A program made the translations under genes and the position numbers. From assembly GCA_046756725.1 (NCBI GenBank), contig JBHHWW010000001.1, positions 1 through 44,794 on the forward strand: DNA of 44,794 nt, in the 5' to 3' direction. The DNA comes from Nitrospiria bacterium (GTDB taxonomy: Bacteria; Nitrospirota; Nitrospiria; SBBL01; JAADHI01). Positions within the stretch are counted from its first letter, which is position 1; every line of letters begins with the position of its first letter. The notes under the pieces were generated by a model. The model had not been told where the DNA came from and made no database searches. It saw only the letters and a program-made list of their open reading frames with translations. This document shows positions 16,760-44,714 of this stretch, piece after piece.

Positions 16760-16814
16760 TATAAAGGATTTAAGTGCCCTTGATGCCCGTTTGTTGTAAA
16801 ATGAGAAAGGTCCC

Positions 16815-20912: not shown

Positions 20913-20921
20913 TCAAGTTAA

Positions 20922-29538: not shown

Positions 29539-29567
29539 TTGACAAGGTAGGGAGGGTATGCTATAAA
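29539..29567 (+). promoter_or_regulatory. Near-consensus sigma70-type promoter with extended -10, facing the respiratory cluster
   Basis: TTGACA (29539-29544), 17-nt spacer ending TGc, TATAAA (29562-29567). The first downstream CDS starts about 270 nt later. Confidence 0.5.
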
Positions 29568-29838: not shown

Positions 29839-30993
29839 TTGAGTCGAACGAAAGAAGTTAGTTTCAAATCAACCCTTTATTCTCTCGTCTTTTTATTTTT
29901 CTTTGTTGTTCCTACTTTAGCAACGGCTGAGCCTGACCCCATGGTCGGGAAACATCTGTTTCGTCATTACTGCGCCGTCTGTCATGGTTTTTCAGGCAAG
30001 GGCGATGGGATTAATGCCGATCATTTAGGCGATGTGCATCCGACTGATCTGACCACGTCTGAGTTTGACAAGTATGACGATGAGGAAATTTATGAAGTCA
30101 TTGAAGGAGGGGGGGCAGCGGTCGATATTTCTTATTATATGCCTCCTTGGGGCGGCGTCTTTGATGAAGAGCAAATACATAGCATTATCGCATATGTTCG
30201 GACTTTGTCGGCGGCGCAGGGCAGTCCGATTTCGGATATGGTGCGGGTTCCTGTCAATCGAAGTGGGAAGAAGGAGTGTCGCGTCTGTCATGTAGAAACG
30301 ACGAGTGTCTTGCGGCCCATCGCACCCAATATTGGACATGAAGGGAGCAAGTTGAAGCGCGATTGGCTAGAGACTTTTTTGAAGCAGCCGGAGAAGTTGA
30401 GGCCGATTGGTTTTATGCCCTTCACGAAGTCGAAGATGCCCAATTTTTACTTCACAGATGGCGAGGTGACTGCGCTTGTCGATTATCTGATGACACTCAA
30501 GGATGAAGGTATTGACGAAAGCGTTCTGATGGGTTGGGATGCTTCAGATTCAGCATTGATCGAAGAGGGGCAGTTCCTTTTTGAAGAAGAGTTCGCCTGC
30601 GACGGCTGTCACAAACGGTCTCCTGGCGGCGATGGCGGGATCGTCGGGCCAGAGCTGTCGTATGCAATGGAACGGATTCGCGTGGAGTGGATGTTTTACT
30701 GGATTAAAAACCCGCAAGCGATTCATCCAAATTCTCCAATGCCGAATTTCAGGATGTCGGATGAACAAATCCGGGCTGTTCTCGCTTATATGTCCAGTCT
30801 GAGTGAGGGGCGTTCAGTTGCAGCAACTGTTGCGGATGTTTCAGGCAGTGCGACCAGTATTGCGCGGGGAAAGAAAATTCTCGAAGGAAAGAACTGTGTT
30901 GGGTGCCATCTGGTTGATTCATTTAATAGTCAGTTGAAGGTCGAGGGTGATTCCCTCGGGGCGAGTGATTCGTCCGAAGGCATAGAAGAATAA
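29839..30993 (+). CDS. Secreted tetrahaem c-type cytochrome (class I-like domains)
   Basis: Signal peptide ...VVPTLATA. Haem motifs are CAVCH, CRVCH, CDGCH and CVGCH. Met-ligand regions are MPPWGG, MPNFYF and MPNFRM. TTG is the only start that includes the signal peptide (in-frame stop at 29833). Confidence 0.85.
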   Translation: MSRTKEVSFKSTLYSLVFLFFFVVPTLATAEPDPMVGKHLFRHYCAVCHGFSGKGDGINADHLGDVHPTDLTTSEFDKYDDEEIYEVIEGGGAAVDISYYMPPWGGVFDEEQIHSIIAYVRTLSAAQGSPISDMVRVPVNRSGKKECRVCHVETTSVLRPIAPNIGHEGSKLKRDWLETFLKQPEKLRPIGFMPFTKSKMPNFYFTDGEVTALVDYLMTLKDEGIDESVLMGWDASDSALIEEGQFLFEEEFACDGCHKRSPGGDGGIVGPELSYAMERIRVEWMFYWIKNPQAIHPNSPMPNFRMSDEQIRAVLAYMSSLSEGRSVAATVADVSGSATSIARGKKILEGKNCVGCHLVDSFNSQLKVEGDSLGASDSSEGIEE

Positions 30994-31015
30994 AACGTTG
31001 AAAAGGGGGGCAAGA

Positions 31016-31540
31016 ATGACGAAGAGGGTTTCGCTTTGGGTGCTGGTTTTGTTCGCAGTATTAATGCTATTGATTCCTGATTTGGGTCATGCAAAAAAAG
31101 ATGATGATAAGCCCTTAAAACCTGTTCCTAAAGCCTATGCGGACAAGAAAATGCCGAGTGGGTGGTGGACCGATGCAAAAATTATTGCAGAGGGAAAAGA
31201 GATCTTTGAAACACGGAAGATAGAATACATTTACAAGAGGAAGAAAAAGGTTGCAAAAGAAGGTTGTGCGACCTGCCATGCGATCAATAAGAAAAAAGAC
31301 CGCCCAAAAAAGCGGGGTGCCCGTGACTTTCGCGTAGCAAAACGGATGAACCGTTTTTCAGAGTCCTACTGGTTCTGGCGGATTGCCGAAGGGGTTAAGA
31401 AAACGGCAATGCCCGCGTGGAAAAAAGAGCTTACCGACGAAGAAATTTGGAAAACGATAGCCTACGAGCATACTTGGTCGCATGGGAACAAGCCTGCGGT
31501 TCATGATCATCCGGAAATTGAACATACATTTGAAAAATGA
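31016..31540 (+). CDS. Lys-rich monohaem c-type cytochrome
   Basis: Signal peptide, CATCH, distal TAMPAW. The ATG at 31016 is preceded by AAGGGGGG. Confidence 0.85.
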   Translation: MTKRVSLWVLVLFAVLMLLIPDLGHAKKDDDKPLKPVPKAYADKKMPSGWWTDAKIIAEGKEIFETRKIEYIYKRKKKVAKEGCATCHAINKKKDRPKKRGARDFRVAKRMNRFSESYWFWRIAEGVKKTAMPAWKKELTDEEIWKTIAYEHTWSHGNKPAVHDHPEIEHTFEK

Positions 31541-31622
31541 TCGATAATAAGCTGTTAGAAGCTTACATTGTGAAGTACTTTTGTTGGAATAAGGTAGTTT
31601 AGGACAGGAAACCAGAGAAGAC

Positions 31623-33179
31623 ATGGAAGTTGAGTCTATTAAGCCGTTCTTAGCTGTTATGATCCCTCTTGTCGGGTCCGTGTTTATTATTTTGGCCCGG
31701 AAGAAGCCGAATGTTCGAGAGGTCTGTACCTTGGTTACTGCCTTCGCGATGATGTTTTCTGTGATCGCGATGATTCCTTCTGTCCTTTCGGGAGAATTGC
31801 TTCACTATACTTTATTTACATTTTGGCCGACCGTTCCGTTTGGATTGCGTGTGGATGGGTTGGGGCTTGTTTTTGCGCTTGTCGCTTCTATCACGTGGGT
31901 TCTTACGAGTTTTTATGCCATCGGGTACATGCGAAGCCTTAATGAACATGCGCAAACGCGTTTTTTTTATTGTTTCGCGGTCACGCTGTTTGCCACGATG
32001 GGGGCGGCCTTCTCGAACAATTGGTTCACGCTTTTTATCTTTTACGAGTTGATCACCTTTTTTACCTATCCCCTGGTTGCTCATCATGAAACCAACGAAG
32101 CATGGGAAAAAGGGAATAAATACCTCGCATATCTTTTGGGGACCTCCAAGGTCTTTCTAATTCCTGCTATTCTTGCGACCTACTATTTTGCGGGTTCTAT
32201 CGATTTTAAGCCAGGAGGGATTATTCCTGTTGATGCAGACAAAACATTGTTGATAGGTATTTTTGTTCTCTATTTGGCTGGGATTGGGAAAGTGGCCTTC
32301 ATGCCGCTTCATTCCTGGCTCCCTGCTTCGATGGTCGCGCCGACGCCTGTTAGTGCTTTGCTGCATGCGGTTGCCGTTGTGAATACAGGTGCATTTTGTG
32401 TCCTCCGTGTCATCATCAACATCTTCGGATTTGATTTGGTGGGGACGTTGCATATCTCGACGTGGAGTCTTGGGGAAATAACGGCGGTGATTGCTTCCTT
32501 TACGATTATTACGGCCTCAATTTATTGCATGAAGGCGAATAACCTGAAAGAACGGATTGCCTATTCGACGGTGAGTCAGCTTTCCTATATGGTCCTCGGG
32601 GGCGCACTTTTGACACCCAGTGGTTTGTCAGGTGGTATTCTGCACATTGCCATGCATGCCTTTGCCAAGATTACACTCTTCTTTTGTGCTGGTTCGATTT
32701 ATGTAGCAACAAAAAAGACGCATGTTTCTCAATTGTCGGGGATCGGGCGAAAGATGCCTTGGACGATGGCCGCTTTTGCGATTGCAACGCTCAGTATGGT
32801 TGGGATTCCCCCTGCGGGTGGATTTGTGAGTAAGTGGTATCTGATGGTTGGCGCGACGGAAGCAAAAGAATTTTGGACCCTGATCGTTTTGGCGACGAGT
32901 TCCGTCTTGAATGCCTTTTATTTTGTCCCGATTGTGGTCAATGGATTTTTTGGGAAGTCCGAGGAGGAGGATGAGGTTCAGCCGCAGGCTGTGCCGCACC
33001 TCGTTCCGCAGAGTGTCGGTGCGGCTGCGGCAACAGTGAATAGAGGAAGGGGAGGATCGGAAATTCAAGAAGCGCCTTTGTTTGTCGTTGTCCCTCTTTG
33101 TATCACTGCTGTGGTGTCCTTGCTGTTGGGGATGTATCCAGGTTTTTTATTGGGGCTTGCTCAATTAATGCAACCATAA
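31623..33179 (+). CDS. Complex I/Mrp antiporter-like membrane subunit (NuoN/MrpD-type, proton-conducting membrane transporter family)
   Basis: 518 aa and polytopic. Hallmarks are TM5 Glu (FIFYELITFFTYPLVAH), GIGKVAFMPLHSWLPASMVAPTPVSALLHA, and HAFAKITLFFCAGS. Confidence 0.9.
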   Translation: MEVESIKPFLAVMIPLVGSVFIILARKKPNVREVCTLVTAFAMMFSVIAMIPSVLSGELLHYTLFTFWPTVPFGLRVDGLGLVFALVASITWVLTSFYAIGYMRSLNEHAQTRFFYCFAVTLFATMGAAFSNNWFTLFIFYELITFFTYPLVAHHETNEAWEKGNKYLAYLLGTSKVFLIPAILATYYFAGSIDFKPGGIIPVDADKTLLIGIFVLYLAGIGKVAFMPLHSWLPASMVAPTPVSALLHAVAVVNTGAFCVLRVIINIFGFDLVGTLHISTWSLGEITAVIASFTIITASIYCMKANNLKERIAYSTVSQLSYMVLGGALLTPSGLSGGILHIAMHAFAKITLFFCAGSIYVATKKTHVSQLSGIGRKMPWTMAAFAIATLSMVGIPPAGGFVSKWYLMVGATEAKEFWTLIVLATSSVLNAFYFVPIVVNGFFGKSEEEDEVQPQAVPHLVPQSVGAAAATVNRGRGGSEIQEAPLFVVVPLCITAVVSLLLGMYPGFLLGLAQLMQP

Positions 33180-33318
33180 GACCAGTAAGGATTTTTTGAA
33201 AGACATAAAAAGCATATTGGTTTAATCCGGTAATTTGAATCGGCATTGTTTTTAGTAGGCAGCTGGGTCTGGTTTGAGAGTAGATAGAATGTTGGTAGAT
33301 GTAGTTAGGAGCCTTTAG

Positions 33319-35112
33319 ATGGAGACAGCCATTCCAGTCTGGGTAATTGCCGTCCCCGTTATTGGGGCCCTGGCGTTGCTTTTTAAAAGAGATTCAGATC
33401 AATATCGAGATGGTGTTGTCGTCACTGCATGCACACTGCCCTTTCTTCTTCTCCTAAGCATCTATAGCAAGGCTGTCGATGGCGGCGTGAATTATGCACT
33501 TTCCTGGTTGCCGGGGATGGAACTGACCTTTAAGGTGGACTCCGCCAGTTTGCTAATTGCGCTAGTCACTGCCTTGCTCTGGATACTTTGTTCCATTTTC
33601 AGTATCACTTACATGACCCATGAAAAAAACCGCTTCCGCTATGACTTCTTCTCACTTCTGACTTTGGCGACAAACCTCGGGGTGCTTCTTGCCGGTGATT
33701 TCTTTACGCTCTTTATCTTTTTTGAAGGTCTGCTCTTATTCCCCTATCCCTTGATTGCGCATAAGGGCGATGCGCCAGCGATCAAAGGGGCCAACCTTTA
33801 CCTCTATGTTGGCGTTATCACGAGCTTGCTCCTTCTTTCGGGGATCGTCCTCTTGAAATTTTACACAGGAGGGGTTGCGCTACAGCCGATTGCGGATAGC
33901 ATCGCCGCAAATATGAGCAGTGGATTAAAATTTCAGATTGCGGCATTGATGGTCGTCGGATTCGGCGGAAAAGCCGGTCTCTTTTTTGAGCACTTCTGGT
34001 TGCCGGAGGCCCATCCCGTTGCGCCCTCACCTGCCTCTGCGCTTCTCTCCGCCGCTATGATAAAAGCGGGTGCCTACGGGATTTACAGGGTGGTGAATCT
34101 GCTATTTGTTCCGCAGGATGGCTCTGTCGGGGCTTGGTTGACCTTAAGTAATATCGGTTATGTGACGATCTTGATCGGGGCCATTACGATGTTCTTTGCT
34201 GTTATTTCTGCCTTGCTTTCTTCCAATTCCAAGCGGATGCTTGCTTTTCACAGTATCAGCCAGATGGGTTATATTGTGCTGGGGATTGGATGTGCGGCCT
34301 ACCTTGGGCGGGATGGAGCGATGGGGGCTGCAGGTGCCCTGTACCATATTGTGAACCATGCACTTTTTAAGGCGGCTCTCTTTTTAGGAGTTGGTGCAGT
34401 CTACTTTAGAACAAACGAGCTCGATATGTACAAGCTGGGTGGGCTTATGAAGAACATGCCAGTTACTGCCATTTGTCTGTTGATTGCTGTTTTCGGTATA
34501 TCTGGTGTTCCCTTCTTCAACGGTTTTGCGAGCAAGACTATCTTGCATCATGCCATCATAGAATCGTATGAGCATGGGCATGATACGATTCTATGGATTG
34601 TCGAAAAACTTTTTATTATTACGGCGGCAGGCACATTTGCCTCGAATTTTAAGCTATTTTATCTGACTTTCCGGGGGGATCGTCTAAAGAAATATGATCA
34701 TGTTGAGCCCGCGCCACTTCCGATGAAGATCGGGATGATCGGCTTTGCCGTCGCTATCCTCTTCCTTGGAATCTTTCCCAACTGGTTGCTGGAAGCGGCC
34801 ATCGGCCCGGCCTTGGCCAGTTTTGGATTTGATGCAAGTTCCCACGCCTACCATCTTTTGTATGACGTGCAGACACAAGTCTCTGGGCTGGCAATTCTTT
34901 ACCCAGGCGCGGAATCATTTTCGAGTGTTCTACACAATCTTTTCTCCGGTGTTATTGCCATTGGCTTAGGTGTAGGACTGATGTTCAGTGGGATGAAGTT
35001 TGGTTGGTTTCACATTCACTTACCTAAATTTATGACCTTTGATTTTTATGCGACCAAGGCGCTTAAACGCTTGTTAAACCCCTGGTCGCTTGTTGTGGAT
35101 AAACAAACTTGA
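33319..35112 (+). CDS. Complex I/Mrp antiporter-like membrane subunit (NuoL/NuoM/MrpA-type)
   Basis: 597 aa and polytopic. Hallmarks are FIFFEGLLLFPYPLIAH, GGKAGLFFEHFWLPEAHPVAPSPASALLSAAMIKAGAYG, and NHALFKAALFLGVGAV. AGGAG lies upstream of the ATG. Confidence 0.9.
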   Translation: METAIPVWVIAVPVIGALALLFKRDSDQYRDGVVVTACTLPFLLLLSIYSKAVDGGVNYALSWLPGMELTFKVDSASLLIALVTALLWILCSIFSITYMTHEKNRFRYDFFSLLTLATNLGVLLAGDFFTLFIFFEGLLLFPYPLIAHKGDAPAIKGANLYLYVGVITSLLLLSGIVLLKFYTGGVALQPIADSIAANMSSGLKFQIAALMVVGFGGKAGLFFEHFWLPEAHPVAPSPASALLSAAMIKAGAYGIYRVVNLLFVPQDGSVGAWLTLSNIGYVTILIGAITMFFAVISALLSSNSKRMLAFHSISQMGYIVLGIGCAAYLGRDGAMGAAGALYHIVNHALFKAALFLGVGAVYFRTNELDMYKLGGLMKNMPVTAICLLIAVFGISGVPFFNGFASKTILHHAIIESYEHGHDTILWIVEKLFIITAAGTFASNFKLFYLTFRGDRLKKYDHVEPAPLPMKIGMIGFAVAILFLGIFPNWLLEAAIGPALASFGFDASSHAYHLLYDVQTQVSGLAILYPGAESFSSVLHNLFSGVIAIGLGVGLMFSGMKFGWFHIHLPKFMTFDFYATKALKRLLNPWSLVVDKQT

Positions 35113-35147
35113 AAATCCTCAAAAATATAAGCGAAAGAGGGATTGTC

Positions 35148-37610
35148 ATGGTTTTTAAAAAAGTAATAAAGCAACCCATGGTCTGGGCATCTTTTCTCAT
35201 TGCCTTACTCCTCTTGATACCAACTGGTTCACTTTTTGCCGAAACAGTAGAATCTCTTTACCGTGACGTGCCCAGTATGGGCAGTCGTAATATCATCTGG
35301 TTGTTTTCTCAGGTTCACATTTTATTCGGGGCCTTTGTCCTGGGTGTTCCGATGTTTATTATCATCATCGAAATTATCGGTATTACGACAGGAGAGAAGC
35401 GGTATGACCGCTTGGCTCAGGAATTTATGGATTTGATTGTCGCGTGTTTTGCGACGACGGCCACGATCGGGATTTTCTTTCTTTTTGCGTTGCTCGTCTT
35501 CTATCCCACACTCATGTCAACGATGGCAGACATCTTTAAACCGACTTATTATATTTATGTCTTACTCTTCTTATATGAAACCCTTTCTGTTTATGTTTAT
35601 TGGGATCGCTGGGATAAATGGCAGAACCGCAAAGGACTTCATCTTTTCTGGGGTTTTATGCTCAATACCGCTGGAATCTTGCTTGTTATCTTGCCAAGTG
35701 GCTTTCTTGCTTTCCAGGCGAGCCCTGTGGTCTTGAATCCTGAGTTTGGCCCTTGGGAAAAGGCTTGGGCGGCACTTAATAATCCGACTTGGGTTCCCGT
35801 GATTATCCATCGGATTGTTGGAAACCTCATCTTAGGAGGGTTTGTTTGCGGGGCCTACGCCGGGGTGGCTTACCTGGGCGCTAAAACGCAGGAAGAGCGG
35901 GAACATTACGACTGGATGGGATATATCGGAAATTTTATCGGGGTTTTCGGTCTCCTCCCAATGCCCTTTGCAGGTTATTATTTGATGCGCGAAGTCTATG
36001 AATACAACCAGCAGATGGGGATTACTTTGATGGGAGGGATCCTGTCCTGGCTTTTTATCTTACAGGCTGTGCTCATCGGGGTTCTTTTCCTTGGTGCCAA
36101 TTATTATTTCTGGCAGGGAATCGCTTACCGAACCCATTCCGCGCCAAAGTATAAAAACGCCATTGTTATTATGTTGGTTGCATTGGTTGGGGCTTTCTCT
36201 GTCTGGCTTACACCTCATTCGCTTGTGGCCAGTGTTTCTGAAGCCAGAGCAATGGGAGGAGCGCATCATCCACTCCTGGGGGTGTTTGGTGTTATGTCGG
36301 CCAAGTTGACTGTTGTGAATTTGATGATTGTGACAACCTTTGTTTGCTTTATCTTATACTGGCGGGCAGATAAGGTTGTGACTGTTAAGTGGGGGAAGGC
36401 CGCAAATATATTTACAGTTGCTTTGATTACCGTTGCGGTTATTTTCATTATCTGGTTGGGTGTCTACGGTTATTTTGTCCCCTCTGTTTATCGTGTGAAT
36501 GTCCTTTCCGTTGCTCAGGTGTTTGCTGTTCTTTTTGTGATGTTTACGATTACGCCTCTCACGGCACTTTCCTTGAAATCTGCGAAATTGACCCATGAGA
36601 TGAAGTGGGGTGTCATGCCGCCTCGCTCCCAGTATGCTTTGGTTATCAATGCTGTCTTTGTGGTTTTAACGATGGCGCTGATGGGATATGCCCGGTCTGC
36701 GTCCCGGGTTCACTGGCATATTTATGGTGTTTTGGAAGATACCTCTTCATATGCCTATACCCCGACCCTCGGTGTCGCGTCTTTCCTTTTTGTGCTGTCC
36801 ACAGCTGTTTTTTGCATAATGACGGGCATTGTTTTTTGGACCTCGCACACGATCCGACATAATCGTTTTTCCACCCGTTACTTCTTTCTAGCCCCTGTTT
36901 TTATGTGGTTTACGGAATTATTTGGGGACAAACAGAAGGAGAAAAAAATACATGCGGGAGGACGGAGGTTTGTTATTACGAAAGTAACGGCTGTGGTCGG
37001 TCTATTTTTGCTTGCCTACGCCTACGTAGGTTATCAAGTACCTCAGAAAGTGGGTCTGCCACCCGAGAAGAAAGCCTTGGATCTGTCTAAGATTAAAACC
37101 AAAGACGATATGGTTCAAATTGGACAGGATATTTTTTATAGCAAGGGGCAGTGTGCCCTTTGTCACTCAATCGGAGCCGGCCATGGTCGCTGTCCGAATC
37201 TTTTAGGAGTCGGGGCGCGTTTGACGCGAGAGTTTATCTATGAAACGCTGGTAAAGCCAGAGGCCTATATCAAGTTGGACTTTCATTCTGCAAAACCAGT
37301 AAATTATGCTGCAGAAATGCCCATTATCAACAAGGCCCCCATTGGTCTATCCGAAGAGGAGCTTTTGACCGTAGTTGCTTTTGTTCAGAGCAATGGTGGA
37401 AAAGTCACGGTCACTCCAGAAGAGTTGAGAGAGACGTCAAGTGGGCCGGAAACAGTGCCGGGGGGCCTCGATGTGCCTCCGGAAGTAGAGCCAGCTGAGA
37501 TGATTGGAGAAGAATCTAATGAAGATCCTGAAGAACTTGCGATGTTTGGTGGAAAATCCCCGAGGAATACAGAGCATTCTAGTATGGCTGAATTAAAAGT
37601 AGGTGAATAA
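35148..37610 (+). CDS. Cytochrome bd subunit I-like ('bd-like') oxidase with extra TM helices, fused to a C-terminal monohaem cytochrome c domain
   Basis: CydA-like N-terminus GSRNIIWLFSQVHILFGAFVLGVP (axial His), LFLYETLSVYVYW (conserved Glu), VIIHRIVGNLILGGF (second His). About 14-16 hydrophobic segments, then CALCH (37152-37166) and an acidic tail. No cydB-like gene is adjacent. The ATG at 35148 is preceded by AGAGGGA; a TTG at 35109 is possible. Confidence 0.85.
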   Translation: MVFKKVIKQPMVWASFLIALLLLIPTGSLFAETVESLYRDVPSMGSRNIIWLFSQVHILFGAFVLGVPMFIIIIEIIGITTGEKRYDRLAQEFMDLIVACFATTATIGIFFLFALLVFYPTLMSTMADIFKPTYYIYVLLFLYETLSVYVYWDRWDKWQNRKGLHLFWGFMLNTAGILLVILPSGFLAFQASPVVLNPEFGPWEKAWAALNNPTWVPVIIHRIVGNLILGGFVCGAYAGVAYLGAKTQEEREHYDWMGYIGNFIGVFGLLPMPFAGYYLMREVYEYNQQMGITLMGGILSWLFILQAVLIGVLFLGANYYFWQGIAYRTHSAPKYKNAIVIMLVALVGAFSVWLTPHSLVASVSEARAMGGAHHPLLGVFGVMSAKLTVVNLMIVTTFVCFILYWRADKVVTVKWGKAANIFTVALITVAVIFIIWLGVYGYFVPSVYRVNVLSVAQVFAVLFVMFTITPLTALSLKSAKLTHEMKWGVMPPRSQYALVINAVFVVLTMALMGYARSASRVHWHIYGVLEDTSSYAYTPTLGVASFLFVLSTAVFCIMTGIVFWTSHTIRHNRFSTRYFFLAPVFMWFTELFGDKQKEKKIHAGGRRFVITKVTAVVGLFLLAYAYVGYQVPQKVGLPPEKKALDLSKIKTKDDMVQIGQDIFYSKGQCALCHSIGAGHGRCPNLLGVGARLTREFIYETLVKPEAYIKLDFHSAKPVNYAAEMPIINKAPIGLSEEELLTVVAFVQSNGGKVTVTPEELRETSSGPETVPGGLDVPPEVEPAEMIGEESNEDPEELAMFGGKSPRNTEHSSMAELKVGE

Positions 37611-38430
37611 TAGATTGTTGATTGAAATAAAACGAAACTACTTGCTTGTCTCGATACTGTTGCTCTTTATCCTCTTTTCAGTAGGGTGCGAAAATAAATA
37701 TGTTGCCAAGGGACATGAGATTTATAGTCGTTACTGTTCTGCGTGCCACGGTGAGAAGGGCGATGGGACCGGATACAATGCGGGGAATCTTGATCCAGTT
37801 CCTCGCGATTTGACCGATAGCGAAGAAGTCTACATGTCAAAACTATCGAATGATGAAATCTTTGAAGTCCTTCAATTGGGTGGTTACGGGGTGGATCTTT
37901 CAGGAGGGATGCCAGTCTGGGGAAAGGTATTCTCGGAAGAAGAACTCTGGTCTCTTGTCGCCTATGTCCGTACGCTTCATCCGAATGAAGGCAATGAGAT
38001 TGTATTTACAAAACCTGATTCTGAAGAACCGGTATTTGATTCAAAGCGCGTGCGATATCCCAAGGTGAAAGAAAAAAATTTTTACGACCTTCTTGGGTCT
38101 CTGGCGCCTGATGAAGATGCTTTCCAGGAACAAGTCGCTTTGGGAGAAGAGATCTTTAGTGAAGTCGGGTGTAATGCGTGCCATAAGGTGAATGGAGAAG
38201 GGGGGGAATTGGGGCCTGATTTATCCCGAGCCGGTTTTATGCTCCAAACCCAGTTCATCTTTCGTTGGATCATGAATCCGCAATCGTTTCTCCCTAAAAC
38301 GAGGATGGCAAACCTGGATTTAAAAGAGGAAGATGCCCTTGCTATTTCTCTCTACCTAAGTACACTGAACGGTGATGCTCCAAAAAATAATGTTTCAGAG
38401 GAAGATGAAGATGAGGGTGGGGGAGTTTAG
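37603..38430 (+). CDS. Dihaem c-type cytochrome, probable lipoprotein
   Basis: Signal with ...FSVGC, then CSACHGEKGDG and CNACHKVNGEG, with Met regions GMPVWG and KTRMANL. The GTG start overlaps the upstream stop by 8 nt. Confidence 0.85.
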   Translation: MNNRLLIEIKRNYLLVSILLLFILFSVGCENKYVAKGHEIYSRYCSACHGEKGDGTGYNAGNLDPVPRDLTDSEEVYMSKLSNDEIFEVLQLGGYGVDLSGGMPVWGKVFSEEELWSLVAYVRTLHPNEGNEIVFTKPDSEEPVFDSKRVRYPKVKEKNFYDLLGSLAPDEDAFQEQVALGEEIFSEVGCNACHKVNGEGGELGPDLSRAGFMLQTQFIFRWIMNPQSFLPKTRMANLDLKEEDALAISLYLSTLNGDAPKNNVSEEDEDEGGGV

Positions 38431-38432
38431 AT

Positions 38433-39179
38433 ATGAAATTACCTCTAATTGTTAAGGCCACAGCCACTGAATTAGGAATCTACGCTTTTTTAAAATTGGG
38501 GATGCCTCTTTTTACGAGTCCTCTTCCTTCCAGTGTTGTCTTTATGTACATGACCTTGGCGACGATATCGATCCTGGTCTACGTTTCGATTTATGAGGAT
38601 GACTTTAATAACTTTTATGTTCCGATTACTTCGTTTATTCGTGGAAATGCGGAAGACAATGCCGGTCGGAAAATGAGCCGTGCAGCCGTATTGATCATGA
38701 TTCCTCTCTTTTTCGGTTTTCGTTCATATCAGAGTGTACAGCCTAATTATGAGCCTCCTTTTCCGCAACGTGTCATTCATCCCGCGCCTCCTGGTTCGGC
38801 CGCAGGATTTACGAATCCCTACGGAGATGACGAGGCAAATCATGAAGCATTTGTTCAAGAGGGGAGAGATGTCTACTATCGCAATTGTGTTTTTTGTCAC
38901 GGCGACAAACTGGATGGAAAAGGTTTATTCGCCCATGCGTTGAATGTTAAACCAGCGAATTTTGCAGATTCAACAACGATTTCAATGCTGATGGAATCCT
39001 TTGTTTTTTGGCGTGTCAAGACGGGAGGCATCGGGTTGCCTGAAGAATCGACTCCGTGGGATTCTGCGATGCCGAGATGGGAATTGATTTTATCGGAAGA
39101 GGAAAGATGGAAAGCCATTATGTTTTTATATGACTATACGGGTTGGAAACCACGGACTTGGGAATTAGATGCGGAGTGA
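38433..39179 (+). CDS. Membrane-anchored (about 3 TM) monohaem c-type cytochrome
   Basis: The N-terminal hydrophobic segments are followed by CVFCHGDKLDG and distal SAMPRW. It starts 2 nt after the upstream stop. Confidence 0.8.
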   Translation: MKLPLIVKATATELGIYAFLKLGMPLFTSPLPSSVVFMYMTLATISILVYVSIYEDDFNNFYVPITSFIRGNAEDNAGRKMSRAAVLIMIPLFFGFRSYQSVQPNYEPPFPQRVIHPAPPGSAAGFTNPYGDDEANHEAFVQEGRDVYYRNCVFCHGDKLDGKGLFAHALNVKPANFADSTTISMLMESFVFWRVKTGGIGLPEESTPWDSAMPRWELILSEEERWKAIMFLYDYTGWKPRTWELDAE

Positions 39180-40747
39180 ATAAGTTGTTTATTGTTAGTA
39201 GGGAGAATATTAGTCTATTGGCCTTCTTAACGCTCCTGATTCTATTTGGATGGGCGCCCTTTGTTCTGACTGATGAAGAAGAACTTCCTCCTCAGGTTGC
39301 CGAGCAAGAAGCGCTCCCGACTGATGATCTTGCTGCCGGTAAAAAGATTTACGAAAAACGATGCATCTCATGCCATGGGGACGAAGGGGACGGAGACGGG
39401 CCCGCTGCGGACAGGTTCCAGCCAAAGCCTCGAAGCTTTAAAAAGGCCGAGTATAAATATCGGACGACACCCCGGGGTGCGCTTCCGACTGATGATGATC
39501 TTTTTAAAGTCATCACAAATGGACTTCCCGGTACTGGAATGCCTGACTGGGCGGATGTATTAACTGAAAAGAATAGGCATCAGGTTATTAAATATATCAA
39601 AACTTTTTCTGACAAATGGGAAAAACAGGAAGGTTCGCCTGAAGTTGTAAAAATTGGGAAAATGGTGCCTTCCAGTCCAGAAAGCATAGAAAGAGGAAAG
39701 AATCAATTCAAAACATTGGGATGTAATCTTTGTCATGGTGTAGAAGGAAGGGGGGATGGACCAACGTCTTCTTCGTTGAAAAATCACCGGGGAGATCCTG
39801 TTTATCCAAGAAACCTTAGCAAGAATTGGTTGTTCAGAGGAGGGGGTGAGGCTGAGAATATCTACATGCGGTTTAATACAGGCCTGAATGGGACACCCAT
39901 GCCCTCATTTAGTAAAGCCCTAGATAATGAGAAGAGTTGGGATTTAGCAAATTATGTCCGTTCCCTCTCTCCTCCTAAAAAGCCCGAGAGAGGCTCAATG
40001 GTGAACTCTCTTCGAACCGAGGGGCCTGTTCCAACCGATCCTGACGATCCCCTTTGGCTGGAAGCTGGGCCCAATTGGTTTCCGATGATGGGGCAAATTT
40101 CCTTTAAGAAAAGACTTTTTACCCCCTCAGTTACGGATATAACAGTAAAATCGATCTTCAATGAAAAGGAGATTGGATTCCTGTTGACTTGGGATGACAG
40201 AAGCAAGAGTAAGGTGAGCAAGCCAGGGGCGAAAAAACAAATTTATAGTGACCAGGTTGCGATTCAGTTTCCAGAGAAGCTACAGCCCGGAGGGGTTAAA
40301 AAGCCTTACTTTATCATGGGTGATGAGAAATTAGGCGTGAACTTATGGTATTGGTCGGCCGACGATAACCGGTTTTTTGAGACCAATGCAAACGGGGTTT
40401 GGAACAATAGTGAAGTGGAGCAGGGCAACTCGGACATTACAGGAAAAGGCTATTACAAAGATGGGCAATATCGTGTCGTAATAAAACGATCTTTACAGAC
40501 AGCGGATAAAGAGAAAGATATTCAATTTGAGCAAGGGGTTTTTTACCCCATTGCTTTTTTTGCGATGGATGGAACCAATGGTGAGACGGGTTCGAAGAGG
40601 TCTATTACGCCATGGTATTTTGTCTTTATGGAGCCGGAATTTGATACGAGTGTTTATATCTTTCCGCCAATGGTCATACTGCTTGCTTTCTGTGTCGAAT
40701 TCGTCCTAGTAAAAATCTTGAAAAAGAATCACAAAAAGACAAGCTAG
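39176..40747 (+). CDS. Dihaem cytochrome c fused to an EB_dh/DOMON-like haem-binding domain, with a C-terminal TM anchor
   Basis: CISCHGDEGDGDG and CNLCHGVEGRGDG. The next part, ...DQVAIQFPEK...PYFIMGDEKLGVNLWYWSADD...GQYRVVIKRSL...IAFFAMDG, resembles the gamma-subunit haem b domain of ethylbenzene dehydrogenase/Nar-type enzymes. The C-terminal helix is IFPPMVILLAFCVEFVLV. The start is ambiguous (TTG 39143, GTG 39176, TTG 39185). Confidence 0.75.
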   Translation: MNKLFIVSRENISLLAFLTLLILFGWAPFVLTDEEELPPQVAEQEALPTDDLAAGKKIYEKRCISCHGDEGDGDGPAADRFQPKPRSFKKAEYKYRTTPRGALPTDDDLFKVITNGLPGTGMPDWADVLTEKNRHQVIKYIKTFSDKWEKQEGSPEVVKIGKMVPSSPESIERGKNQFKTLGCNLCHGVEGRGDGPTSSSLKNHRGDPVYPRNLSKNWLFRGGGEAENIYMRFNTGLNGTPMPSFSKALDNEKSWDLANYVRSLSPPKKPERGSMVNSLRTEGPVPTDPDDPLWLEAGPNWFPMMGQISFKKRLFTPSVTDITVKSIFNEKEIGFLLTWDDRSKSKVSKPGAKKQIYSDQVAIQFPEKLQPGGVKKPYFIMGDEKLGVNLWYWSADDNRFFETNANGVWNNSEVEQGNSDITGKGYYKDGQYRVVIKRSLQTADKEKDIQFEQGVFYPIAFFAMDGTNGETGSKRSITPWYFVFMEPEFDTSVYIFPPMVILLAFCVEFVLVKILKKNHKKTS

Positions 40748-40810
40748 GAAAAAATACTTCTGTTGTAGAGGCAAAGGTAAGAGATAATCTATAGTCGTGA
40801 AAAGAGCAGT

Positions 40811-41305
40811 GTGATTAAAAATGCTGTCATTATCCTGCTCATTCTATTGGGTTCTGTGGGCCCACTTTTAGCGACGCATGAGGCGGATCATCGATATGTT
40901 CTGTCAGGTTATGTAAGAGACACAAGTGGCATTCCCCTATCTGAGGTGACGGTCTTTTTGGAACATAAAGGGGGAGAAAAAAAGAGTATAAAAACAAATA
41001 ACGACGGTTACTATGAAATTCTTTTTCACCTACATAATAGTAATCTTGGGGATCAAATAATTGTTAAGTATGGAGAGAATAAAATAAAACACAGAGTTGA
41101 GTTTGATCCTGATGATAAGTTCACGAATAGAGGCGCGGAATTAAATTTTGGTGCACCTGGGAAGGAAAGTGGAAATTTTTGGATTTATTTGACTGGGGGC
41201 GGCATCCTTGTTTTTCTCCCCTTTGTGTATAGAGGTTTCTTCGGGAAAAAAAAGGTTGTAGGTAAGGTTTCGGCAGAAAAAAAACGAAGAAGAAAGAAAT
41301 CGTAA
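40811..41305 (+). CDS. Secreted CarboxypepD_reg-like beta-sandwich protein with a C-terminal TM helix and polybasic tail
   Basis: Signal peptide, then YVLSGYVRDTSGIPLSEVTVFLEHKGGEKKSIKTNNDGYYEI. A TM segment FWIYLTGGGILVFLPFVY follows. The tail is KKKVVGKVSAEKKRRRKKS. Confidence 0.6.
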   Translation: MIKNAVIILLILLGSVGPLLATHEADHRYVLSGYVRDTSGIPLSEVTVFLEHKGGEKKSIKTNNDGYYEILFHLHNSNLGDQIIVKYGENKIKHRVEFDPDDKFTNRGAELNFGAPGKESGNFWIYLTGGGILVFLPFVYRGFFGKKKVVGKVSAEKKRRRKKS

Positions 41306-41341
41306 GGTTGGTATGGAATGTGACGATGGAGGTTGTGAAAG

Positions 41342-41893
41342 ATGAGCCCGGTAGAGAGTAGCGATGAAGATGTCAGCCGTCGACGCTTCTTTACCCTGAT
41401 GGGGTTGGGTGTCGGATGGGGTGGTGTGGCAGCGGCTTTGGGAGGCGTGGGTGTTGGTGCGGCACGCTATATGTTTCCGTCTGTGGTTTATGAACCACCC
41501 ACTGTATTTAAAATAGGGCTTCCCAGCGATTATGGAATCGGAACCGATACGAAACTCAAAAAAGAACGACAGATTTGGGTTGTGCGCAATACTAAGGGGA
41601 TCTATGTTCTGGTCGCAATCTGTCGGCATTTGGGATGTACCCCGAACTATTTTAATGATCAACAATTGTTTCGGTGTCCCTGCCATGGCAGTATCTACGA
41701 TATTTATGGCAATGTCCTTGGCGGACCGGCACCGCGCACTTTGTGGCGTACAGCAATTTCTATTGACCCCGTCGATGGACAGATTGTCGTCGATTTTAAT
41801 CGTAGGCAAGATCCCGATCCGAAAGGAACAGAAGAAGGACTGATGGTGGATGAGGCAAGCAGAGAAGTCGAGCCCTTCTTTTTAAGGGTTTAG
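41342..41893 (+). CDS. Rieske [2Fe-2S] subunit with a Tat signal
   Basis: Twin-arginine [12 protein letters not shown]. Cluster boxes are CRHLGC and CPCHGS. GGAGG lies upstream of the ATG. Confidence 0.93.
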
Positions 41894-41915
41894 TTGTCAT
41901 GAGGAGCAAGGCAGG

Positions 41916-42686
41916 ATGTTGAAATTACTTCAGCAGATTCGCGCAGTAATTAATAAAACACAGGTATGGAAGTCCATTTTTCGACATGGTTATCCGGATA
42001 ACGATGGTAATCGCGCATTGGTGATGTTCAGCAATGTAATTTTACATCTCCATCCGGTTCGTATTCGACGAGGTGCCCTGAAAATAAAATTTACCTGGTG
42101 TTTGGGGGGGCTCACTTTTTTCTTCTTTATTCTTCTCGCGATTACGGGTGTATTCCTGATGTTCTATTACGTCCCGGATACGAACCGTGCTTACAATAAC
42201 ATTCGGGATTTGGGGACCGTTATCTTTTTTGGTGATTTATTTCGGAGTCTTCATCGCTGGTCTGCGCATGCGATGGTGCTGTTTGTCTGGTTGCATATGA
42301 CGCGGGTGTTTTTAACGGGTTCTTACAAACCTCCCAGAGAGTTTAACTGGGTTGTCGGGGTGATCTTGTTAGCAACAACACTGGTGTTAAGTTGGACGGG
42401 GTATCTTTTGCCGTGGGATCAGTTGGCCTTGTGGGCTGTGACGGTCGGAAGCAAAATGGCGGAAGCGTCTCCACTCATTGGAAAGGCGGGGCCATTTGGG
42501 CCGGAGTTAGGGATGACAGCCGATAATGATATTACCTTTGCCTTACTTGGGGGAACGGTTGTTGGTCAGAGTGCTCTGCTTCGTTTCTATGTCCTTCACT
42601 GTCTCGCTTTGCCGTTAGTGACTGCTCTTTTTATAGCCGTTCATTTTTGGAGAATCCGGAAGGACGGATTCTCGGGTCCATTATAA
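41916..42686 (+). CDS. Cytochrome b6-type (split) cytochrome b, N-terminal haem-binding subunit
   Basis: The His pairs are [15 protein letters not shown] (13 residues between ligands) and [16 protein letters not shown] (14 between). WCLGG matches the b6 YCLGG Cys. The C-terminus RKDGFSGPL is close to b6 RKQGISGPL. Confidence 0.93.
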
Positions 42687-42711
42687 ACAAACGATTTGAT
42701 TGAGGAAGTCT

Positions 42712-43572
42712 ATGTCAGAGAAATCTTCAGGTTCCGCGGCTACCGCAACAGAAACCCCGTCGAAATCTTTAGCCGAAATGATCAAGAGGACTGCTAAAGA
42801 AAAAATTGGGCCGGAAGACACAGTCTTGGTATGGCCAAACCTGGTTTACCTAGAATTAATTTCCATGCTTTTTGCCTTGGCAATTTTGTTATTCCTTTGC
42901 TTGTATTCTCCCGCACCATTGGAAGAGCTCGCAAGTGCCGATACGACGCCAAATCCGACGAAGGCGCCTTGGTATTTTCTAGGATTGCAGGAACTGCTTG
43001 TTTATTTTGATCCCTGGCTTGCCGGGGTTGTCCTGCCGTCTCTGATTATCGTCGGACTTATTCTGATTCCGTATATTGATCCAAACCCCAAGGGGAAGGG
43101 GTATTATTGTTTTTCTGAAAGGAAGTTTTCTGTCTTGGGTTTTAGTTTTGGATTAGCACTCTGGTATATTTTGATCGTGATTGGGGTCTGGTTCAGAGGG
43201 CTTGATTGGTCCTGGTATTGGCCGTGGGATGATCCACATTTCCATCAACCAGCAGGTGCTGTTAAGCTGGTTGATCTGCAGGTGATTATCCAGAGTGCGC
43301 TCGGGTTGAGTGAAAACCCGATCGTTACCCTGGGGCGTTATGCGATAACGATCGCAAATATGATCACTTGGGCGATATTTTTAGGATATTATGCCATTGG
43401 TTTTACAATCCCTGCTATTTTTATGCGGAGCTTTTATAATCGTTTGGGGTTCGTCAGGTACAATTTGACCATGGTCATGTTTCTATCCATGATGGGCGTT
43501 CCTTTAAAAATCTTTGTTCGCTTATTGGCGGATATTAAGTATGTGCTTGTGACACCTTGGTTTAATATTTAA
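42712..43572 (+). CDS. Subunit IV-like / cytochrome b C-terminal subunit with extra C-terminal helices
   Basis: PetD-like core WPNLVYLEL...TKAPWYFLGLQELLVYF...LILIPYID. At about 286 aa it is much longer than the roughly 160-aa subunit IV. The ATG at 42712 is preceded by GAGGAAG. Confidence 0.85.
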   Translation: MSEKSSGSAATATETPSKSLAEMIKRTAKEKIGPEDTVLVWPNLVYLELISMLFALAILLFLCLYSPAPLEELASADTTPNPTKAPWYFLGLQELLVYFDPWLAGVVLPSLIIVGLILIPYIDPNPKGKGYYCFSERKFSVLGFSFGLALWYILIVIGVWFRGLDWSWYWPWDDPHFHQPAGAVKLVDLQVIIQSALGLSENPIVTLGRYAITIANMITWAIFLGYYAIGFTIPAIFMRSFYNRLGFVRYNLTMVMFLSMMGVPLKIFVRLLADIKYVLVTPWFNI

Positions 43573-43593
43573 CTTTCTTGGATGAGGTTCTAA

Positions 43594-43734
43594 ATGGATG
43601 ATCTATGGGCTTATCCCTATCGTTTGGGGATTGGAATCTTCATTGTGGTCGGGACTATCCTCCTGACTGGGGGTTTTGTTGCTTTTACTGCCTGGCTTGA
43701 ACATGATTTTAAAAAGGATAAATCGAAAAAGTAG
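43594..43734 (+). CDS. Unlisted 46-aa single-TM peptide, candidate small subunit of the Rieske/cyt b complex
   Basis: ATG at 43594 with GAGG 7 nt upstream. The translation is MDDLWAYPYRLGIGIFIVVGTILLTGGFVAFTAWLEHDFKKDKSKK*, with one hydrophobic helix and a basic tail. It is too short to appear in the supplied ORF track and fills the gap between subunit IV and the tetrahaem c gene. Confidence 0.5.
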   Translation: MDDLWAYPYRLGIGIFIVVGTILLTGGFVAFTAWLEHDFKKDKSKK

Positions 43735-43793
43735 GTACCCTTATACAACAGCTTAATAGATATTGAAGTGTTGAAGAGGAGAACGATCGGTAT

Positions 43794-44714
43794 ATGGTAA
43801 AGCATTTTGTTTTTGCGGTTTCAAGTGTTCTTGTAGTTTTTCAGCTAGGCATCTTTGTTTATAAATATGAAACAGCCGAATGGAGAACCTATCAATCGAC
43901 CTATTATCAAAAACTTTCCGAGGTCGTAAATCAGCCGAGCATTGCAGAGACCCCTCTTAAGGTTGATCAAATCTGGGATAAAAATCTCAATCGACCGGAT
44001 CGTTGTACGACTTGTCATGGTGGAATTGCAAATCCGGCTTTTGAGAGTGAGTCACAACCTTACAAAGTCCATCCACATTTTAAAGACAAGGGTTTTATTT
44101 CGAAGCATCCATTTGAGAAATTCGGGTGCACCATTTGCCACGAAGGAAATGGGCAGGCCGTTACTGTGGCTGCAACGCATGGTGTTGTTCATCATCTAGA
44201 TCGGCAGTTGTTGACGGGTCCCTATGTTCAGGCTTCCTGTACAAAATGTCATTATGAACTTCATTCCCGCGATGTCTATTGGCCTGAGGCAGATGTTCTC
44301 ATGAAAGGGAAGCAACTTGCTTATGAGTTGGGATGTGGCGCTTGTCATGCAATTCGACAATTTGGCACAAACCCGACTGTTGCGCCTGAAATTTCAAATA
44401 TGGGAAGTAAAACAGAACTCGCTTTTTCTCTTGTCCATGATTTTACACATCTTGAATCAGAAGATCATCTGACGCGTGTTTGGGAATTTGAACACTTCAA
44501 AGATCCGCAAAAAATTGTTCCCGGTAATCCTGATGCGGAAGATCCAAAAGAACGCACTTCGCCTACTATTATGCCAGATTGGGATTTGACGGATGAAGAA
44601 GCCACTGCATTGACTGTTTTCGTGATGTCGCTCAGGGACCCTCAAGTTGAAAATATTCCGAGATCCTACTTTCCAAAGATTGATAGCCACGAAGGCTTCC
44701 TTCAGTACAGATAG
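43794..44714 (+). CDS. Membrane-anchored tetrahaem c-type cytochrome
   Basis: N-terminal TM FAVSSVLVVFQLGIFVY. Haem motifs are CTTCH, CTICH, CTKCH and CGACH. GAGGAG lies upstream of the ATG. Confidence 0.85.
   Translation: MVKHFVFAVSSVLVVFQLGIFVYKYETAEWRTYQSTYYQKLSEVVNQPSIAETPLKVDQIWDKNLNRPDRCTTCHGGIANPAFESESQPYKVHPHFKDKGFISKHPFEKFGCTICHEGNGQAVTVAATHGVVHHLDRQLLTGPYVQASCTKCHYELHSRDVYWPEADVLMKGKQLAYELGCGACHAIRQFGTNPTVAPEISNMGSKTELAFSLVHDFTHLESEDHLTRVWEFEHFKDPQKIVPGNPDAEDPKERTSPTIMPDWDLTDEEATALTVFVMSLRDPQVENIPRSYFPKIDSHEGFLQYR

Follow-up and report, generated by a model that had tools for sequence, protein, structure and literature searches.

Another, divergent sequence of the TO_2 respiratory cluster, from a probable saline/marine member of the Candidatus Manganitrophaceae lineage (Nitrospirota)

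The TO_2 (terminal oxidase 2) cluster of Candidatus (Ca.) Manganitrophaceae reportedly goes back to the work of Yu and Leadbetter in 2020 (Nature), and it has been named and discussed since then. Here we have analysed a stretch of 44,794 nt, called the window throughout (contig JBHHWW010000001.1 of assembly GCA_046756725.1, Nitrospiria bacterium, forward strand), in which a run of 14 genes is, on good evidence, the TO_2 respiratory operon of a probable saline/marine member of this lineage. As published, TO_2 comprises a bd-like protein and two subunits of MrpD type, together with two cytochromes b, one periplasmic and one in the membrane, a set that is said to be common to all Manganitrophaceae and unique (PMC9040806). 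The proposal put forward for it is that O2 and quinone share the electrons derived from Mn(II), while an ion gradient is dissipated by the MrpD-like subunits (PMC9040806). A module composed of a bd-like protein, alt-NxrC and cytochrome c is known from Nitrospira, Nitrospina and anammox bacteria (PMC6606698; PMC3578206), and for the Nitrospira locus with CIII_1, bd-like_1, bd-like_2 (NIDE0901-type) and alt_nxrC_1 a III-IV supercomplex has been proposed (Mundinger et al. 2019, PMC6606698). Among bd-like proteins, the OR-N family, found mainly in Nitrospirota, is described as having no Q-loop, ca. 14 transmembrane helices, a conserved His19 and cytochrome c as the likely donor (Murali, Gennis & Hemp 2021, bioRxiv version), and in Nitrospira an OR-N1/OR-N2 pair has been proposed in the literature as an oxidase.

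The cluster has therefore already been described and named, and it is transcribed in a cultured relative; what is new here is another, divergent sequence of TO_2. Its 14 open reading frames (ORFs), all of them on the plus strand between 29839 and 44714, are the following, preceded by a promoter-like site.

29539..29567, +, promoter-like site TTGACA-17 nt-TATAAA with TG upstream of the -10, ca. 270 nt before ORF1, read directly from the letters
29839..30993, +, ORF1, secreted or anchored tetrahaem cytochrome c (384 aa, 4 CxxCH); same-position homologues in Manganitrophaceae 48-67% identical
30998..31540, +, ORF2, monohaem cytochrome c with an N-terminal signal or anchor (180 aa); 63-91% identity in related loci, 41-44% in Nitrospira
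31623..33179, +, ORF3, antiporter-like (MrpD/NuoL-type) subunit 1 (518 aa); Proton_antipo_M about 173-174 bits
33319..35112, +, ORF4, antiporter-like subunit 2, "type A" (597 aa); Proton_antipo_M 173 bits
35109..37610, +, ORF5, bd-like membrane haem protein of the OR-N family, carrying at its C-terminus a periplasmic cytochrome c with one haem (833 aa, or 820 aa from ATG 35148; ca. 14-15 transmembrane helices)
37603..38430, +, ORF6, cytochrome c with two haems, probably a lipoprotein (275 aa); in most loci it goes with an ORF5-type gene
38433..39179, +, ORF7, membrane-anchored monohaem cytochrome c (248 aa)
39143..40747, +, ORF8, dihaem cytochrome c with an EB_dh domain (NxrC/EbdC-like haem b) and a C-terminal transmembrane anchor (534 aa); likely start 39185
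40811..41305, +, ORF9, small secreted CarboxypepD_reg-like protein with a C-terminal transmembrane segment and basic tail (164 aa; Pfam 31.6 bits, cut-off 32.3)
41342..41893, +, ORF10, Tat-exported Rieske [2Fe-2S] protein (183 aa; SRRRFF, CRHLGC, CPCHGS; Pfam Rieske)
41916..42686, +, ORF11, cytochrome b6-type subunit (256 aa; Pfam Cytochrome_B)
42700..43572, +, ORF12, long subunit-IV-like protein with ca. 5 transmembrane helices (290 aa; weak Cytochrom_B_C in Pfam)
43594..43734, +, ORF13, peptide with a single transmembrane helix (46 aa); every complete related locus has it in this place (47-84% identity)
43794..44714, +, ORF14, tetrahaem cytochrome c anchored in the membrane, with which the cluster ends (306 aa)

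The gene content is that by which TO_2 has been defined. As in the Manganitrophaceae loci, the bd-like ORF5 is found together with two PF00361 genes, ORF3 and ORF4, and a single cluster contains both a cytochrome b accessible from the periplasm (the EB_dh protein ORF8) and one embedded in the membrane (ORF11). A survey taking one genome per species gave 25 loci. All 14 genes are collinear in L001, L002, L003, L006 (Ca. Manganitrophaceae M_MetaBat.18) and L009; they are collinear except for ORF6, moved behind ORF8, in L010, L011 and L025 (Ca. Manganitrophus sp. GAC4), and collinear up to the contig ends in L004, L005, L008 and L012. Synteny of the 14 genes amounts to 8 genome loci in total, with protein identities of 45-92%, and the identity to proteins of the freshwater Manganitrophus is ca. 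46-86%. Because the whole order recurs in independent genomes it is not the result of chance, nor is it confined to one genome, which was one of the outcomes that the original prediction had named as fatal to it. The genes that come after ORF14 in the relatives are speH/speE, and for this reason we place the end of the cluster at ORF14.

The best named relatives of ORF5 (82% identity) are labelled Ca. Manganitrophaceae. Host placement is based on protein best matches only, at 82-88% identity to metagenome-assembled genomes (MAGs) labelled Manganitrophaceae, Nitrospiria or Nitrospirota; the closest MAGs (OFTM) come from saline subsea-tunnel biofilms and are placed near Manganitrophus. When the cytochrome b6 of the window was looked up exactly, two short Logan contigs were the only matches, and they carried no information on the environment. 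The window has the same 14 gene families as TO_2, in the marine-type order of L001, L002, L003, L006 and L009. It differs in its second antiporter-like subunit, which is of a type (A) only ca. 30% identical to that of most TO_2 loci, Ca. Manganitrophus included, and in having no counterpart of the conserved 80-aa protein with two transmembrane helices that precedes the second pump elsewhere. As for expression, genes Ga0306812_102279-102288 of strain Mn1 are evenly transcribed, at the 69th-85th percentile (PMC9040806 Table S6). In domain content and haem counts they agree with ORF6 through ORF1 as arranged in freshwater loci, and from this order and content we infer that they are probably the TO_2 genes, a label that Table S6 does not give them.

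The layout agrees with what the original prediction had read from the letters, namely 14 same-strand ORFs separated by gaps of -8 to +139 nt, with two overlapping junctions. Taking the longest ORFs, the intergenic gaps from ORF1 to ORF14 are 4, 82, 139, -4, -8, 2, -37, 63, 36, 22, 13, 21 and 59 nt. The -37 overlap between ORF7 and ORF8 is probably an artefact of the longest-ORF rule, since the alternative ORF8 start TTG 39185, which has GGAG 9 nt upstream, removes it, and with that start the predicted range is reproduced. The two overlaps that are left in the longest-ORF reading are ORF4/ORF5 and ORF5/ORF6, and the first of them (-4) depends on the start TTG 35109; from ATG 35148 the gap is +35, and the public gene call for ORF5, of 820 aa, fits this second start. 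The predicted 15 CxxCH motifs are all inside the cluster (4, 1, 0, 0, 1, 2, 1, 2, 0, 0, 0, 0, 0 and 4 from ORF1 to ORF14), and none is found in the remaining 24 window ORFs of at least 100 aa. Each of the domains assigned by eye was recovered by hidden Markov model search against Pfam, two of them weakly (Cyt_bd_oxida_I in ORF5 and CarboxypepD_reg in ORF9). The absence of CydB, haem-copper oxidase, NuoH/J/K and MrpB/C/E/F/G, claimed from the start, also holds among the Pfam-scanned ORFs of the window, and NuoA and MbhD/E/G/M partners were likewise not found by Pfam in cluster or window. The cluster indeed matches no textbook complex III, complex IV or bd operon. The near-consensus promoter that had been pointed out upstream is conserved in three relatives (L012, L002 and L006), whereas the flanking spacer diverges in the alignment. 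It is absent from the scan listing because position 6 of its -10 hexamer is A, against the rule of the scan; the promoter and terminator scan of the window gave sites no more numerous than in shuffled sequence, and the tRNA and Rfam scans found no RNA genes, so that the window offers no RNA marker for its taxonomy.

The TO_2 subunit set is not confined to Manganitrophaceae; the literature that we read describes the combination only there. In Nitrospira sp. Kam-Ns4a (L026, 2394-19046) and in a second Nitrospira MAG (L030), what comes after an ORF5 homologue (56-58% identity) is an ORF3 homologue (53-54%), then two small ORFs and another antiporter-like gene, and then genes of the ORF7, EB_dh and cytochrome c types; ahead of it lie Rieske and cytochrome b genes, a further bd-like paralogue and genes resembling ORF2 and ORF9. 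The same bd-like/pump/pump adjacency, again accompanied by genes for EB_dh and cytochrome c proteins, was found in two Nitrospinota loci (L028 and L031, TARA), the first of them with a cytochrome b nearby. The comparison in PMC9040806 covered the order Troglogloeales, which may explain the statement that TO_2 is unique. What is specific to the Manganitrophaceae type is the ORF14 tetrahaem cytochrome c (confined to such loci in 12 of the 12 that have it), the position of the pumps upstream of the bd-like gene, and the lack of a second bd-like paralogue. Compared with the Nitrospira CIII_1 locus, homologues of ORF9, 2, 10, 11(/12), 5, 7, 8 and 6/1 are shared, and Kam-Ns4a and the second Nitrospira MAG also have the two antiporter-like genes after the ORF5 homologue. 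However, Nitrospira has a second bd-like paralogue (ca. 31% identical to ORF5) and another gene order, its cytochrome b is fused and its Rieske protein longer, and it lacks the ORF14-type tetrahaem cytochrome c and is mostly without pumps.

We have also counted metagenome loci, limiting the counts to the 22 that were well flanked, with at least 4.5 kb on both sides of the ORF5-type gene. The antiporter-like pair was present in 5 of these 22, and Rieske/cytochrome b genes in 17. The original prediction had considered the antiporter-like subunits as orphans, and this does not quite hold, as they directly adjoin the bd-like gene in every locus that has the pair. Moreover, two marine Nitrospirota MAGs carry, besides a full TO_2, a stand-alone second set (L007:5496-12313 in OFTM244 and L020:5317-12373 in OFTM249) made up of two genes each for CBS-domain and for antiporter-like proteins and one for a bd-like/cytochrome c protein. 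There is no Rieske or cytochrome b gene in the flanks fetched for these two sets, and in that of L007 no further cytochrome c gene either. Similarly, in the metagenome loci L039, L045 and L061 the pair stands beside a bd-like gene with no Rieske/cytochrome b within ca. 10 kb. Because the pumps are always adjacent to the bd-like protein and form such stand-alone trios with it, we believe that they belong with it and not with the Rieske/cytochrome b genes.

The bd-like nature of ORF5 is faint at the level of the Pfam profile (Cyt_bd_oxida_I, 50 bits, profile positions 10-253 of 418 only), with the cytochrome c domain at the C-terminus. An AlphaFold2 model built with 72 homologues (predicted local distance difference test score 73.6, predicted template-modelling score 0.76) had CydA/AppC structures as all of its top 10 Foldseek matches in the PDB (probability 1.0, TM-score 0.41-0.54 on the target), which supports a bd subunit I fold for the N-terminal helices of the predicted structure. 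There are 13 hydrophobic segments by transmembrane scan and ca. 15 membrane-length helices in the model (14 plus an N-terminal anchor). In an alignment of ca. 13-15% identity with the Geobacillus CydA, His70 corresponds to His21, His234 to His186 (the b558 ligand), Glu157 to Glu108 and Tyr150 to Glu101. We take His21 of Geobacillus to be the equivalent of His19 in E. coli. Invariant in the 72 homologues are His70, Tyr150, His178, His234, Glu295, Glu378, Met382, His386, His387, Met396, Lys399, Trp536 and His537, together with the c-haem CxxCH and its Met737. Position 157 is Glu in every listed homologue of at least 57% identity (Manganitrophaceae/Troglogloeales type) and Ser in the Nitrospira and Nitrospinota homologues that could be named; Glu or Ser at this position does not track the presence of the antiporter pair, as the Nitrospira loci with the pair carry Ser. 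The shorter bd-like paralogue that resides with the ORF5 homologue in Nitrospira keeps a Glu at the place of ORF5-157.

All this fits the OR-N family, since ORF5 has no Q-loop (its Pfam match ends at profile position 253), there are ca. 14 transmembrane helices, the His19 equivalent is conserved and cytochromes c adjoin the gene; the difference is that the cluster has no CydA-like partner. Within the family ORF5 would be an OR-N1, because its co-resident Nitrospira paralogue is the shorter, NIDE0901-like one, an assignment made by this reasoning and not against reference sequences. With canonical CydAB(X) ORF5 has in common the N-terminal fold and His ligands equivalent to His19 and His186 of E. 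coli, and it differs from it by the absence of CydB or CydX in the cluster and of the Q-loop, by extra transmembrane helices, by the fused cytochrome c and by a Tyr in the place of one of the two channel Glu. A canonical cytochrome bd operon was discarded for want of CydB and the Q-loop. The fused cytochrome c domain also points to cytochrome c, and not quinol, as the probable donor.

The two antiporter-like subunits have full PF00361 domains in which the charged residues of the ion path of Mrp and complex I (Glu in transmembrane helix 5, Lys in helix 7, His/Lys in helix 8, Lys in helix 12) are present. ORF3 nearly reaches the cut-off of the NF006236 model "MrpD" (655 bits, cut-off 663) and has NuoL, MrpD and MbhH as nearest solved relatives; its Glu142 (helix 5), Lys223 (helix 7), His248 (helix 8), His341/His345/Lys349 and Lys404 are invariant or nearly so in 45 homologues. 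It also shares 56% identity with the subunit that takes the NuoL position in the complex I operon of Nitrospira defluvii, from which it follows that the same pump lineage serves complex I variants and the bd-like cluster. In the N. defluvii assembly that operon (L027:416-11473) consists of nuoA-K and then the MrpD-like gene in the NuoL position. ORF4 is closest, among solved structures, to MbhH, MrpA and MrpD, and Glu136, Lys218, Lys249, His343/His347/Lys351 and Lys406 are invariant in its family. By sequence, it is a non-orthologous replacement of the usual second pump. This type A (597 aa) is the rarer form, found in the window, L001, L009, L012 and L035, and the ca. 30% identical type B (511-531 aa) is that of most other TO_2 loci, the trios, Nitrospira and Nitrospinota. 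Where checked, type B (e.g., L002:8393-9940 and L026:14207-15802) is accompanied, usually just upstream, by the 80-aa protein with two transmembrane helices (L002:8191-8412 and L026:13990-14232) that is absent from the window. At 50-57% identity, type A has more distant relatives among long PF00361 proteins, and one of these belongs to a complex-I-like operon that contains five genes of this kind.

The resemblance of ORF3 and ORF4 to the subunits of complex I, Mrp and MBH is therefore that of complete domains with conserved Glu/Lys/His channel residues, and the difference is that none of the partner subunits of these systems is found in the cluster or the window. An Mrp antiporter or a partial complex I was rejected for this lack of partners. 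The gene order suggests instead a bd-type haem protein as the partner of ORF3 and ORF4, and we know of no characterised case of antiporter-like subunits paired with such a protein.

Cytochrome c domains (Cytochrom_C or Cytochrome_CBB3 in Pfam) are found in ORF1, 2, 6, 7, 8 and 14. In ORF8 they are joined to an EB_dh domain, for which there is also a match to TIGR03477 ("DMSO reductase type II haem b subunit"), and residues 59-280 match the Kuenenia cytochrome 6h5l_B (E = 7e-58). The haem ligand Met108 of EbdC is conserved; Lys201 falls at "SKRS", one residue out of register, so that ORF8 probably keeps the Lys ligand as well. Homologues of ORF7 and ORF8 adjoin the ORF5-type gene in all 22 of the well-flanked metagenome loci, and in a Nitrospinota locus they are fused. 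Homologues of ORF9 are found in the Manganitrophaceae loci (47-57%) and also at the head of the Nitrospira loci.

The last part of the cluster, ORF10-14, resembles a b6-type complex. The best NCBIfam matches of the Rieske protein ORF10 are b6f iron-sulfur subunits, and ORF11 is much closer to cytochrome b6 (E = 3e-45 for its best PDB matches) than to the bc1 cytochrome b (8e-23). Its four His ligands and its haem ci Cys are aligned and conserved, "WCLGG" stands for the "YCLGG" of b6, and the protein ends in ...SGPL as b6 does. ORF12 matches b6f subunit IV (E = 1.5e-5) and, in NCBIfam, both subunit IV and ExtQ. As in b6f, the cytochrome b is split into b6 (ORF11, four transmembrane helices) and subunit IV (ORF12), with the four His and the haem ci Cys in place; in contrast to b6f, there is no cytochrome f in the unit, the tetrahaem ORF14 being there instead, and ORF12 is ca. 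130 aa longer than subunit IV. The order Rieske, cytochrome b, membrane protein and 4-haem cytochrome c (ORF10, 11, 12 and 14) is that of ExtOPQS in Geobacter. However, ORF11 (274 bits to ExtP, NF040969, cut-off 290) and ORF12 (52 bits to ExtQ, cut-off 150) stay below the equivalog cut-offs, which makes the unit close in type and not an equivalog; ORF14 matched no ExtS model, and ORF10-14 are embedded with a bd-like module and not with a porin-cytochrome conduit. An alternative complex III was ruled out, as Pfam detects no ActB/ActC-type genes in the cluster.

How would such a cluster work? The reading that we favour, and to which we would give an even chance of being right, is that of a TO_2 operon producing two membrane units that share c-haems, with the ORF5 oxidase coupled to pumps in one of them and the Rieske/b6 proteins leading to quinone in the other. 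A single transcript from the conserved promoter would provide both, and ORF1, 2, 6, 7, 8 and 14 would be the shared periplasmic c-haems. In the first unit (ORF3-8), ORF5 would take electrons from cytochrome c through its own c-haem domain, ORF7, ORF8 and ORF6 and pass them to O2, and ORF3 and ORF4, attached to it, would couple its turnover to ion translocation, be it by building or by consuming a gradient. In the second (ORF10-14), the b6-type, ExtOPQS-like complex would connect this c-haem pool with the quinones, and in a lithotroph whose donor has a high potential it would do so mostly uphill (from cytochrome c to quinone), spending the ion gradient and feeding reverse electron transport. 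We favour O2 as the acceptor of ORF5 because the core of the bd fold around the O2 site and its His are conserved and the Glu108 equivalent is retained in the lineage, and also because the operon already holds a quinone-reactive unit and the marine genus of Manganitrophaceae is described in the literature as lacking a cbb3 oxidase. A drop of ca. 350 mV from the Mn couple to O2 allows at most ca. two charges per electron, so that extra pumping would be thermodynamically possible, but only just. The Mn couple lies at +466 mV and ubiquinone at +113 mV, which gives a gap of ca. 350 mV also in the direction of the quinone (PMC9040806).

Several observations weigh against this two-unit arrangement. 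As regards ORF5, the two proton-channel glutamates of the canonical enzyme (Glu99 and Glu107 in E. coli) are not both kept, the invariant Tyr150 being at the place of Geobacillus Glu101, and the cluster has neither CydB nor a second CydA-like partner. The original prediction stated that bd-like oxidases of this kind had escaped biochemical characterisation, and in the literature searched there is indeed no purified or solved OR-N family enzyme, the sequence and fold searches of the PDB returning canonical bd oxidases only; O2 reduction by ORF5 is therefore an assumption. Furthermore, related bd-like modules exist in strictly anaerobic anammox bacteria (PMC6606698; PMC3578206), which suggests that the family need not reduce O2. 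As regards the pumps, ORF5-type genes are without an antiporter-like partner in 17 of the 22 well-flanked loci, and with the connecting subunits of NuoH/J/K or MrpC/F/G type absent there is no known path by which redox chemistry would be coupled to ORF3 and ORF4. In the second unit, the Qo-site PEWY motif reads APWY in ORF12 ("KAPWYF"), with the glutamate replaced. Finally, the transcript data come from a freshwater relative and not from the organism of the window.

The idea contained in the original prediction, that of a quinol/cytochrome c/O2 supercomplex or a machine for reverse electron transfer, has been published as the same hypothesis (PMC9040806; PMC6606698), and as a conjecture it may stand, although it does not concern a new cluster. 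In its bifurcating version (Yu et al. 2022), the 14 products would form one machine that splits electrons between O2 and quinone, and the inward flow of ions through the two MrpD-like subunits would drive the uphill reduction of quinone via the membrane cytochrome b. This was proposed for this very cluster (PMC9040806), the 14-gene order with its Rieske/b6/tetrahaem unit is intact across the family, and the related genes of Mn1 are evenly transcribed; on general bioenergetic grounds, a reversed bc-type complex, with ca. one charge per electron, falls short of the ca. 350 mV gap, so that gradient-consuming modules would be of help. The antiporter pair, however, travels with the bd-like gene and not with Rieske/cytochrome b (L007, L020, L039, L045 and L061), we identified no known bifurcating cofactor, and physical association of all the products is without support. 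We therefore consider a single bifurcating supercomplex unlikely.

Rather improbable, in our opinion, is that ORF5 is not an oxidase at all and that together with the antiporter pair it makes a cytochrome c:quinone oxidoreductase that is driven by a gradient and is comparable in function to a reversed alternative complex III or to the membrane arm of complex I, with O2 being reduced elsewhere, e.g., by TO_1. Such a role has been raised for the bd-like proteins of Nitrospina and Nitrospira (PMC3578206; PMC6606698), and it would agree with the homologous bd-like/alt-NxrC/cytochrome c modules of the strictly anaerobic anammox bacteria, with the invariant Tyr in the place of one channel Glu and with the quinone-reactive modules that antiporter-like subunits have as partners elsewhere. 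But ORF5 lacks the Q-loop as well as the residues with which canonical CydA binds quinol (its Pfam match ends at profile position 253; Murali, Gennis & Hemp 2021; PMC3578206), the four-helix core of the O2 site and the His19 equivalent are conserved, and the operon already contains a dedicated quinone-reactive unit in its Rieske/b6 genes. We find it similarly hard to believe in a downhill flow, with electrons leaving quinol at the Rieske/b6 unit and reaching the bd-like oxidase by way of the c-haems, in a III-IV-type supercomplex to which the antiporter-like subunits would add proton pumping. This was proposed for the homologous and highly transcribed region of Nitrospira moscoviensis (CIII_1, bd-like_1/2, alt_nxrC_1 and cytochromes c; PMC6606698), which has gene families in common with the window. 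Yet the cultivated Manganitrophaceae are obligate lithoautotrophs with a donor more positive than the quinones (PMC9040806), for which quinol would be a product and not the main fuel. The replaced PEWY glutamate also speaks against it, and the direction of flow is not something that can be read from a sequence.

The rest of the window is housekeeping (guaB/guaA and a minus-strand trp operon) plus a cluster of TPR, CsgG-like and beta-helix genes. The latter, at 12746-22502, is made up of five same-strand genes whose products look secreted or like lipoproteins: one with TPR, thioredoxin-like and CsgG-like parts, two more that are CsgG-like, a DUF1565/NosD beta-helix protein of 1365 aa and a TPR protein with a weak MtrB/PioB match. 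These genes may be involved in outer-membrane or surface assembly. A porin-cytochrome conduit was ruled out here, as in spite of the MtrB/PioB match these ORFs contain no CxxCH. At 11525-12749, a Ser/Thr kinase with a PEGA domain is divided between two ORFs that overlap and are read in different frames (11525-12049 and 11982-12749); the kinase domain itself is interrupted, which indicates a frameshift, i.e., an assembly error or a pseudogene.

Coming back to TO_2, how energy is conserved and how low-potential reductant is obtained from donors of very high potential, such as Mn(II) or nitrite, is an open question. The same pairing of pumps and bd-like protein in a cultured Nitrospira (Kam-Ns4a) and in Nitrospinota means that the statement that the parts of TO_2 are unique to Manganitrophaceae needs qualifying, and the window adds that a non-orthologous protein can take the place of the second pump. 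It is possible, although we would not call it probable, that ORF3, ORF4 and ORF5 constitute a self-contained enzyme of a so far uncharacterised kind, in which ion modules of complex I type drive, or are driven by, a bd-type haem protein with no connecting subunits; the presence of the trio alone in some genomes offers a minimal construct for expression. If this were true, the trio, found as it is in Nitrospira lineage VIII, in Nitrospinota and in two marine MAGs, may be a general accessory of lithotrophs that use high-potential donors, one that would raise the yield of ions per electron or the driving force for uphill reactions, and the lineage of the window would represent a variant of it with a swapped second pump.

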